A stretch of 64,000 nucleotides of DNA from Candidatus Peregrinibacteria bacterium GW2011_GWF2_43_17 (GTDB taxonomy: Bacteria; Patescibacteriota; Gracilibacteria; UBA1369; UBA12470), in the NCBI GenBank assembly GCA_000999315.1, contig LCFW01000001.1:11637-75636 (forward strand), given 5' to 3'. A model generated the notes under the pieces. That model saw nothing but the letters and a program-made list of their open reading frames with translations, did not search any database and was not told the origin of the DNA. Position numbers and translations under genes: made by a program. Positions 27,277 through 40,025 of this stretch are shown piece after piece. Each line of letters begins with the position of its first letter. Within the stretch, counting starts at the first letter, position 1.

Positions 27277-27300
27277 GAAATCACATTTTTCAGAAGTTCC
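27277..27300. mobile_element. Solo terminal remnant of the tilS MITE family
   Basis: gaaatcacatttttcagaagttcc is 22/24 identical to the reverse complement of 39040-39063; followed by TTAA. Confidence 0.65.
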
Positions 27301-38696: not shown

Positions 38697-40025
38697 TTAT
38701 TTAAGCTTTTTAATTTTACTCGCTTTGGCAGGACTGCTCCAGGAAATTTTCAAAATTTGTCCAGTTGTTTTGGTGATTTTGTATTTGTCCGCGATTGCAA
38801 GCCATCCGACACATATAATTTCTTTCCCGAGTTTTATTACCGGAATCTCTTTTCTTATCTCTTGCGGGATTTTTTTGTTGGTGAATAGGTCTTGGAGTTT
38901 TTGAGTTTTGCCGTTTAGGCCGAGCGGTTTGATTTTATCGCCGGGCTTGAATGTGGTTGCGCGGAGTTTTTTTATGTCGCCGATTTTGTCGAAGTCGAGA
39001 AAGATCGGGCGAGTTGTCAAAATTGAAAAAGTCGGTTTGGGAACCTCTGGAAAATGTGATTTCGTCGCGAAATTTCCATTCTTTCGAGCGAAAACGGTGA
39101 AGATCGACGAAGTCGTCCCGCTTAGCGGGACGTCGAGGAGGTATGAGCTGTTTGTAGCCGAAAGATGGGAATTGCAGTAGAAGGCATGTTTTCCAGAGGT
39201 TCCCTTGAGTTCTCCCGGAAGTGGCATTGCTTTCCCGTAGGCGATTTTCATGTTGAGTTTTTTTGTGCCGGTCTTGTTTTGCGCGATTAATTTTTTCAGT
39301 TCCGCGATATTTTTTTTGGAAAGGTTGCGGTTTGTTTTTAAAAGTACTGCCGATTGCAAATACGGGTGTAGTTTTGCGAATTTTTTTGTGTCGAACGAAT
39401 CGGTCCAATGCTCGATTTCCGAGTCTATGAAAGCTTGTACCGATTTTAAATTTTCAATCGTTGAGAGGAAAGTTTTTTCCAAATTCGGATTTATTTTTTT
39501 GAGTTCGGGGATGATTTTTAGTCGGATTCGGTTGCGTGAATATTTCGGGTCCGAGTTTGACGAGTCTTTGCGGTAAGGGAGGTTGTGTTTTTTCAAATAA
39601 GATAAAATTTCCTGCTTGGTTGTGTTGAGAAGCGGGCGTTCGATTTTGTCGGACTTGATGCCGGTTAGCCCTCTTAAGCCTGTGCCGCGAGTTAAGTTGA
39701 GGATGAGAGTTTCAATCGAGTCGTTTAAGTGGTGGGCGGTTAAGATTTTTTCCGCGTTGTGTTTTTTTCTTACCCTTTCAAGGAAGTTATATCTGACGAT
39801 GCGGGCGGTTTCTTCGTTTTTTTTGGGTAATGTGATTTTTTCGGTTTCGATAACGAGGTTGTATTTTTTTGCGATTTGTTTGCAAAAAAGTTCGTCCGCG
39901 TCGCTTTCTTGTCCGCGCAAGTTGTGGTTCAAGTGGGCGAGGATCGGTTTTTCACCTTTTGCGAGAAGTTTCTGCAAAAGGTAGATCGAGTCGGGTCCGC
40001 CGGAGAATGCAAGGATTTTTTTCAT
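38697..40025 (-). CDS. tilS: tRNA(Ile)-lysidine synthetase carrying a 56-codon in-frame palindromic insertion
   Basis: AFSGGPDS PP-loop, TAHHLND, RNRIR, C-terminal PGDKIKPLG...KLQDLF domain; upstream of ftsH. Confidence 0.95.
   Translation of the reverse strand: MKKILAFSGGPDSIYLLQKLLAKGEKPILAHLNHNLRGQESDADELFCKQIAKKYNLVIETEKITLPKKNEETARIVRYNFLERVRKKHNAEKILTAHHLNDSIETLILNLTRGTGLRGLTGIKSDKIERPLLNTTKQEILSYLKKHNLPYRKDSSNSDPKYSRNRIRLKIIPELKKINPNLEKTFLSTIENLKSVQAFIDSEIEHWTDSFDTKKFAKLHPYLQSAVLLKTNRNLSKKNIAELKKLIAQNKTGTKKLNMKIAYGKAMPLPGELKGTSGKHAFYCNSHLSATNSSYLLDVPLSGTTSSIFTVFARKNGNFATKSHFPEVPKPTFSILTTRPIFLDFDKIGDIKKLRATTFKPGDKIKPLGLNGKTQKLQDLFTNKKIPQEIRKEIPVIKLGKEIICVGWLAIADKYKITKTTGQILKISWSSPAKASKIKKLK
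39039..39204. mobile_element. 166 bp palindromic MITE (RPE-like) inserted in frame in tilS
   Basis: 16 bp perfect TIRs GGGAACCTCTGGAAAA / TTTTCCAGAGGTTCCC; central hairpin cgtcccgct-t-agcgggacg; TT on both flanks, so 168 bp added in total. Confidence 0.88.

Follow-up and report, generated by a model that had tools for sequence, protein, structure and literature searches.

We describe a palindromic element of 166 bp that lies within tilS, the gene for tRNA-Ile lysidine synthetase, in Candidatus Peregrinibacteria bacterium GW2011_GWF2_43_17. The stretch of DNA analysed, hereafter the window, comprises 64,000 nt of contig LCFW01000001.1 (positions 11,637 to 75,636; GenBank assembly GCA_000999315.1), and the element occupies window positions 39039-39204 on the plus strand, where it reads GGGAACCTCTGGAAAA...TTTTCCAGAGGTTCCC. 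Our results favour an account, to which we assign a probability of about 0.85, in which the element is a non-autonomous transposable element of the miniature inverted-repeat type (MITE) that was mobilized in trans and is now carried by its host protein as a tolerated, translated loop.

According to this account, a DDE transposase of the IS5 family of insertion sequences (ISs) would recognize terminal inverted repeats (TIRs) of about 16 bp and act in trans, placing a 164-bp core at short AT-rich sites with duplication of 4 bp. A single such transposition event would have brought the element into the variable linker of TilS, between its middle and C-terminal domains. As core and duplication together make 168 bp, and the sense strand is free of stop codons, the gene would have stayed open, and its protein most likely includes the insert as a translated, Ser/Thr-rich, unstructured surface loop of 56 residues, which the enzyme would tolerate. 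The core itself does not derive from the IS, and some single-stranded form of the element, DNA or RNA, would be under selection. The features of the locus, in window coordinates, are as follows.

38697..40025, minus strand: tilS open reading frame (ORF), 442 aa plus stop, intact and reading through the element
39036..39039, no strand: left flanking direct repeat TTTG, the same as the right repeat at 3/4 positions
39037..39204, minus strand: the 56 inserted codons (TilS residues 275-330), of low confidence in the AlphaFold2 model
39039..39204, plus strand (strand of the covariance model, antisense to tilS): MITE copy, 160.2 bits with model R1, at C1:50675-50840 of its own genome, G000
39039..39054, plus strand: left TIR GGGAACCTCTGGAAAA, whose bases 2-16 are the same as the TIR of an IS in genome G090 at 14/15 positions
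39115..39131, no strand: apex hairpin GTCCCGCTTAGCGGGAC, a 17-mer dispersed in the genome
39189..39204, minus strand: right TIR, a perfect reverse complement of the left TIR
39204..39207, no strand: right flanking direct repeat CTTG, the other flank of the 164-bp GG..CC core

The element in tilS and its host protein

The ends and fold of the element had been read from the sequence alone as perfect 16-bp TIRs enclosing one long imperfect hairpin, and both descriptions were borne out. With up to two mismatches allowed, GGGAACCTCTGGAAAA and its reverse complement gave only two matches in the window, where shuffled sequences predict 0.09. The 166 nt fold into a single long imperfect hairpin of -63.7 kcal/mol, against -35.5 +/- 3.8 kcal/mol in 200 shuffles (z = -7.37), none of which folded equally well. 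The same sequence-only reading had reached an addition of 168 bp, or 56 codons, by counting a TT flank; the length stands, but the boundaries are better drawn as a 164-bp core at 39040-39203 (GGAACC...GGTTCC) with an imperfect 4-bp direct repeat around it. That reading was also right that the peptide GTSGKHAFY...SHFPEVPK makes up TilS residues 275-330 and that its deletion joins ...PGELK to PTFSIL.... Besides the tilS frame, one further short frame is open through the element, which has no transposase of its own, and its apex hairpin stands where most family members have CGTATCAGnnnnnGATACG.

Joints between the tilS flank and the element were present, on one or both sides, in Logan contigs from four runs of three studies, all labelled groundwater metagenome, and the insertion is therefore no assembly artefact. 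These contigs end within the element, as contigs do at repeats. No RNA run was among those listed for the tilS stretch.

The TilS ORF carries a PP-loop domain (PF01171, residues 3-168, E = 1.7e-51), with the SGGxDS motif present as AFSGGPDS, and a TilS_C domain (PF11734, residues 358-427, E = 2.2e-9). By sequence it matches solved TilS structures in the catalytic domain only; by fold its top match is the TilS-tRNA complex 3A2K (full length), with further matches to 2E21 and 1NI5 (Aquifex TilS and Escherichia coli MesJ). A TilS homologue was found in all 41 genomes searched. In relatives of the same family the match falls into two pieces that skip about residues 267-330, and the 56-residue insert is absent from 13/13 aligned orthologues. 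The empty site looked for by the sequence-only reading is thus present: no aligned orthologue (0/13) has homologous residues, and the genome holds 14 matches to the element. In an AlphaFold2 model of TilS built on a 14-sequence alignment (mean predicted local distance difference test score, pLDDT, 76), the three domains have ten-residue block means mostly of 79-97, with a dip to 64-66 at about residues 111-130, and residues 272-337 fall below 50. This pattern of confidence places the insert past the middle domain, whose strands reach 268, and ahead of the C-terminal domain, which begins at 341.

That the 56 residues are instead an ancestral, lineage-specific segment of TilS, with the other copies due to chance or derived from it, strikes us as scarcely credible. 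The linker around the insert site does vary in length among orthologues, but none of the 13 has the segment, the same DNA recurs at intergenic sites with TIRs and target duplications, and conservation in the family alignment has no codon periodicity (0.742, 0.751 and 0.738).

The gene might also be an inactivated, decaying pseudogene in a cell that reads AUA in some other way. An insert of 56 residues between tRNA-binding domains could disturb function, and the assembly has only two tRNA(CAU) genes, where three is the usual number; tRNA-Ile2, the substrate of TilS, is not obvious among them. We nonetheless think this very unlikely. The 442-codon frame is intact, with the PP-loop motif and other invariant columns kept, and tilS looks needed: the catalytic motif columns are invariant in the TilS alignment, the assembly has no second tilS, no tRNA-Ile(UAU) is among the 43 tRNA genes that Aragorn found in the 16 contigs, and AUA codons are in use, six of them within tilS. 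At 84-89% identity to its closest sibling copies, the tilS copy is not a recent insertion, and the fact that its frame is intact despite 11-16% divergence, with no frameshift or stop accumulated, argues against a pseudogene. The same allele was seen in runs of three studies.

The repeat family, its target duplications and IS5-type ends

A genome-wide search for further copies by BLASTN, nhmmer and covariance model found a dispersed family in the window's own genome (G000; 1.2 Mb in 16 contigs; other genomes are likewise given as G and a number, contigs as C and a number). It comprises 14 covariance-model matches, eight of them full length, in at least three subfamilies. The full-length copies lie at C1:50675 (tilS), C4:17791, C3:38779, C2:142899, C2:164300, C4:66183, C2:78980 and C1:100793, and their subfamilies differ in their ends (GGAACCTCTG, GAGACCTCTGC, CAGACCCGCTGC and GAGGTTCCTGC). 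The other copies have internal deletions, are cut short or contain a nested insertion.

For the family as a whole, 42 full copies were aligned with the GG..CC core as register. A perfect 4-bp direct repeat flanks 21/42 copies in this register and a repeat matching at three of four positions flanks nine more, whereas permuted flanks gave a mean of 3.4 perfect repeats (maximum 10) and shifted registers 0-3. The perfect repeats are TAAA (six copies), TTTA (five), CTAA and TAAG (two each), and CATA, TATA, TTAG, TCAA, AAAA and TTTT (one each). The core measures 164 bp in 24/42 copies, so that core and duplication come to 168 bp and the frame is kept. Two subfamily-B copies of G000 have a perfect 4-bp repeat, judged by eye, one base further out.

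Candidate mobilizing elements were found in other genomes of the order, where 8/201 genomes hold transposase homologues. An IS of 1169 bp in G193 (contig C28), recognized as an inverted pair of 14-mers 1.17 kb apart, has the TIR GGAAGCTCTGAAAAAC, TTAG on both sides and a transposase of 315 aa (DDE_Tnp_1, PF01609, E = 2.6e-29; DUF772, PF05598, E = 5.2e-19). The 1168-bp IS of G090, a relative at 84% identity, has the TIR GGAACCTCTGAAAAAC, the ends of the MITE subfamily to which the tilS copy belongs, and the ISs of G143 and G006 have the TIR GGACTCTCTGAAAAA, the ends of another MITE subfamily (L062, L079 and L050; G001 and G004). As the MITE ends match those of different IS relatives, variation among MITE ends mirrors that within this IS clade. 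Copies of the IS range from 1157 to 1170 bp; by type of transposase, length of about 1.2 kb, short TIRs and 4-bp duplication, set against the general properties of the IS5 group, they probably belong to it. The sequence-only reading had suggested looking for an autonomous IS with such termini, and one with GGAACCTCTG ends is indeed present in G090, but the search of G000 returned none.

The likeness between MITE and IS is confined to about 16-17 bp per end. We considered and rejected derivation of the core from the IS: the resemblance stops after about 16 bp, and the conserved core motifs are essentially absent from four IS copies, where no more of them occurs than the short ACGAAA, a single TTGCAGT and a single reverse GAGCGAAAA. 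The only DDE_Tnp_1 ORF of G000 (C14:5609-6805, 399 codons) was also rejected as a partner, its inverted repeats beginning with the unrelated CTAAAAAGGCACGA. No paired family TIRs lie 0.5-3 kb apart in G000, which has only solo TIR-like ends. One of these, CATTTTTCAGAAGTTCC, is in the window at 27284-27300 (C1:38920-38936, minus strand) with no partner nearby, and comparable ends occur at C2:346247, C7:20920, C8:24501 and C2:286712. The source IS could since have been lost, could never have been assembled, or could have been present transiently.

Other repeats are associated with the family. The 17-nt hairpin at 39115-39131 (GTCCCGCTWAGCGGGAC) has 22 copies in G000 with up to two mismatches, three of them within MITE copies, where it replaces the usual apex (CGTATCAG...GATACG); examples outside tilS are at C1:8743, C2:135329, C9:2471 and C11:32140. 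Several further copies have a common flank similar to GCTTGAATGTATTGCG and suggest another repeat family. Longer variants of the MITE, of about 217-285 bp, carry an extra insertion near the same internal site and split the profile match at about model positions 72/47 (G000 C4:55835-56119; G009 C9:5873-6090, C12:30742-30960, C29:64063-64280, C17:14041-14258 and C31:48274-48491).

Genic copies, intergenic copies and the hairpin core

The frequency of genic insertion was estimated from an unselected sample, four whole contigs of G009 (358 kb) with 25 full copies. Twenty-four of these are stop-free opposite the model strand and two on the model strand, and only one, in a gene for a QueE-like radical-SAM protein, is bordered on either side by 40 or more open codons. 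When G000 is included, 28/31 full copies lie outside ORFs, against a crude coding fraction of 0.90; genes were here approximated by ORFs of at least 110 aa, and two G000 copies below the profile-coverage cut are left out of the 31. The count of in-frame against intergenic copies that the sequence-only reading asked for thus falls heavily on the intergenic side, with in-frame copies in four genes of relatives besides tilS. The genic copies, which came from a peptide search and so form a selected set that gives no estimate of frequency, are listed with the length of core plus 4 bp, a multiple of three in 5/5.

TilS, G000: residues 275-330; 168 bp
Orn/DAP/Arg-decarboxylase-fold (PLP) protein, G039: residues 306-360 of 442, the Pfam match resuming at 361; 168 bp
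QueE-like radical-SAM protein, G009: residues 158-212 of 330; 168 bp
PrmC, G001: residues 163-216 of 337, element in the opposite orientation, the methyltransferase match cut at 164; 165 bp
Wzy_C-type membrane protein, G009: residues 498-552 of 600; 168 bp

At the QueE-like locus (L072, on contig C12 of G009), the host frame upstream of the insertion reads ...GNPDK GNPDKYAYY..., with the first five element-encoded residues doubled, which suggests a partial extra TIR beside the full copy; another full copy is found some 360 bp away (L072:1440-1605).

A second in-frame copy in G000 concerns rsmI. The subfamily-C copy at C2:78980-79142 (L089:281-443) lies between an ATG-ACG and the TP_methylase domain, the Pfam match to which begins one residue past the element. 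The eight full-length matches to RsmI orthologues (8/8) likewise show an empty site: each starts at query residue 56-58, the first one past the element, or shortly ahead of that residue. A ninth match lies at a contig end and is confined to the C-terminus. The six orthologues whose 5' ends were inspected start directly with M(T)LY.VATPIGN or VLY.VATPIGN. The AAAAAATGAC context upstream of the element is common to the G002 orthologue, and the sequence from the element to the domain has no ATG, GTG or TTG. Here core plus 4-bp register come to 166 bp, and the frame is held from the upstream ATG instead. RsmI most likely carries a 55-residue insertion after codon 2, or else it would start at an ATG inside the element.

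The core of the element is structured as well as palindromic. RNAalifold returned 57 pairs from the 42-copy alignment, 49 of them with at least one double compensatory change, and conservation is higher in unpaired than in paired columns (mean entropy 0.586 vs 0.802). Twenty-two columns are invariant over the 42 copies, which come from different families, and the motifs ACGAAA, GAGCGAAAA, TTTGCAGCC and TTGCAGT are near-invariant. On the model strand, G-T/T-G combinations number 80 against 27 for A-C/C-A (64 against 25 when one dominant pair is removed), and 30 pairs have any G-T against 15 with any A-C; these counts, like those of covariation, are drawn from related sequences and do not represent independent events. 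The covariance model discriminates the two strands (about 170 vs 70 bits), and where both neighbouring ORFs agree in direction, 12 copies have the model strand antisense to the ORFs and three have it co-oriented. Covarying stems with near-invariant loops argue for selection on a single-stranded form of the element, and the data together suggest that a folded single strand, whether DNA or RNA, matters to it. A search of Rfam 15 with window positions 38900-39350 and E up to 10 gave three sub-threshold matches, the best of them CRISPR-DR57 (19 bits against a gathering score of 39; E = 0.15). A link of element orientation to the replication strand was considered and dropped, local GC skew agreeing in 21/43 cases. 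Orientation is uniform within some contigs: in G009, 10/10 full copies on C13 are on the minus strand and 5/5 on C29 on the plus strand, and C12, C35 and G000 behave likewise.

Such a structure raises the prospect that the element is removed from the message, by excision or by cleavage and re-ligation, or is passed over by translational bypass, giving a TilS without the 56 residues. The great stability of the hairpin, the covariation of 49/57 stem pairs with conserved loops, and the excess of G-T over A-C, which suggests a selected folded single strand, would all suit such a process. However, frame and stop codons would then be irrelevant, yet all in-gene copies examined are stop-free and frame-preserving; copies are depleted from genes (3/31 within them); the G-T excess favours the strand that lies antisense to tilS and to 4/6 host genes; and no Rfam match reached its gathering score, nor were ribozyme or intron motifs recognized. 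We therefore consider removal or bypass very unlikely. Under the account of a mobilized MITE with a translated insert, the excess of intergenic copies and the frame-preserving, stop-free nature of the genic ones would be the outcome of purifying selection on roughly random insertions.

A suggestion that adds to the MITE account, rather than replacing it, is that the hairpin core serves some purpose besides mobility, as a structured module of RNA or single-stranded DNA, and rides on IS5-type ends, the tilS copy being a by-product; a processing or termination signal, an antisense RNA, or an intermediate of replication or transposition would be candidates. The invariant columns and well-conserved loops, the compensatory changes, the separation of the strands, the antisense bias in orientation, and a core that is unrelated to the IS interior and conserved over many lineages of Patescibacteria all speak for it. 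Against it stand the lack of an Rfam family, the inflation of covariation counts by related sequences, the patchy, burst-like copy numbers (0 to more than 78 per genome) with many truncated copies, which are typical of selfish DNA, and the fact that upkeep of the hairpin could serve transposition itself. We regard such a function as possible but doubtful. Somewhat more speculative still is the idea that a core of about 130 nt is a functional structured nucleic acid, conserved across Patescibacteria, that has repeatedly gained the ends of different IS5-family ISs and so been able to spread, its size of 164 + 4 bp and its stop-free frame having been selected for survival in essential genes.

Several observations weigh against the account that we prefer. 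The flanks of the tilS copy (TTTG...CTTG) agree at 3/4 positions only, and in the strict register of the alignment none of the eight full copies of G000 (0/8) is flanked by a perfect 4-bp repeat. The transposase query returned no IS5-type match in G000, G001, G009, G027 or G039 (0/5), and homologues turned up in only 8/201 genomes of the order; mobilization in trans by this IS is suggested by the identical ends, and draft genomes may miss repeats or IS copies. No empty-site allele of tilS was seen in the contigs of the four runs, although contigs lose rare variants and the absence of element-skipping contigs is no proof of fixation. The low number of tRNA(CAU) genes has been mentioned above, and the case for translation of the insert, which we infer, comes from the open frame. 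Lastly, covarying stems, invariant loops and a G-T excess exceed what a plain MITE needs, and our account leaves them unexplained.

Distribution, known relatives and significance

Element DNA matches the genomes of 12/41 relatives. Covariance-model matches number 37 in G001, 35 in G039, 33 in G027 and at least 78 in G009, and a 14-nt end motif is enriched in a patchy set of genomes from several families (G009, 174 counts; G039, 59; G190, 43; G057, 33; G180, 32; G027, 31; G172, 27; G062, 21; G182, 21; G000, 19), the reversed control giving 0-2 per genome. In G182, a member of a different family within the order, copies of the same TIR are paired at a distance of only about 108-110 bp (for example at C2:56524-56645 and C5:26147-26270) and point to a shorter variant of about 122 bp.

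Over some 186,000 species genomes, a degenerate core motif gave more than 121 loci; the covariance model was applied to 63 of the 80 listed, and 46/63 passed. By title, the passing records are Candidatus Peregrinibacteria, Peribacteria, Saccharibacteria, Doudnabacteria, Falkowbacteria, Uhrbacteria, Magasanikbacteria, Moraniibacteriota, Sungiibacteriota, Gracilibacteria, Paceibacterota, Parcubacteria group and Patescibacteria group, and one contig, cut at its end, is labelled Gammaproteobacteria. The covariance model did not recognize the core-motif matches in Bacteroidaceae, Anaerolineae, Deltaproteobacteria and others; these were set aside, their number being about that expected by chance. 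The sequence-only reading had proposed a repeat family that creates new protein sequence in one lineage of the Candidate Phyla Radiation (CPR); a dispersed family with in-frame copies is upheld, but its restriction to a single lineage is not, as it occurs in many lineages of Patescibacteria.

The nearest parallel, in behaviour and with no relation in sequence expected, is provided by the Rickettsia palindromic elements RPE-1 to RPE-10, which occur in frame in Rickettsia genes (Ogata et al. 2000, as summarized in PMC10969869). As described there, the RPEs too are palindromic, hairpin-forming and about 150 bp long; they are scattered over a small genome, have a stop-free frame of their own, and are inserted in frame in unrelated housekeeping genes, to which they add a peptide. 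The review stresses genic copies of RPEs, unlike the 28/31 intergenic copies here (PMC10969869). The tilS family also differs in its host, Patescibacteria rather than an alphaproteobacterium, and in having clear TIRs, a 4-bp duplication and a matching IS5-family transposase. To our knowledge, no link to TIRs, a duplication or a transposase has been established for RPEs.

The tilS family also resembles MITEs known from other bacteria. Correia/NEMIS (Neisseria), RUP and BOX (pneumococcus), ERIC, and QMITE1 (Coxiella) are likewise non-autonomous, with TIRs, duplications and hairpin cores, and are mostly intergenic with occasional in-frame genic copies and variable copy number (PMC10969869, PMC5896051). 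The 2024 review of prokaryotic MITEs covers RPEs, ERIC, BOX, QMITE1 and Anabaena MITEs as makers of in-frame fusions; the terms Patescibacteria and candidate phyla are absent from it (PMC10969869). Unlike those MITEs, the tilS family has another sequence, and both its GGAACCTCTG ends and its AT-rich duplication of 4 bp link it to an IS5-family IS. A TA duplication is made by Correia and RUP. In those MITEs we know of no spread as wide as this one over many classes of a single phylum, and of no structure as marked as its nearly invariant loops and covarying stems.

The IS5 of E. coli is about 1.2 kb long, with a 16-bp TIR beginning GGAAGG and a 4-bp YTAR duplication. The candidate mobilizing ISs are similar (1157-1170 bp, one 315-aa DDE_Tnp_1/DUF772 transposase, TIRs beginning GGAA or GGAC, TTAG duplication), whereas the tilS element lacks a transposase and has only about 16 bp per end in common with them. 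We found no published description of this MITE family in full-text literature searches, as far as they reach. Its kind is known from RPEs and other MITEs; the family, its phylum-wide spread and its link to an IS5-family IS appear to be undescribed.

CPR bacteria have tiny, gene-dense genomes and are usually thought poor in mobile DNA. Here, one MITE family reaches dozens of copies per genome of 1.2-1.4 Mb and is shared by many lineages of Patescibacteria, with frame-keeping insertions in core translation-related genes (tilS, rsmI and prmC) and in others. Such in-frame inserts inflate or distort gene models and marker-gene alignments in metagenome-assembled genomes, and MITE copies break short-read assemblies, as seen where Logan contigs end inside the element. 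The match between MITE TIRs and IS ends represents a directly testable hypothesis of mobilization, and the core, with its conserved loops and covarying stems, is a candidate structured element. If that core were functional and its frame-preserving size selected, a reading that we hold to be rather unlikely, the family would be a phylum-wide source of new protein segments in minimal genomes.

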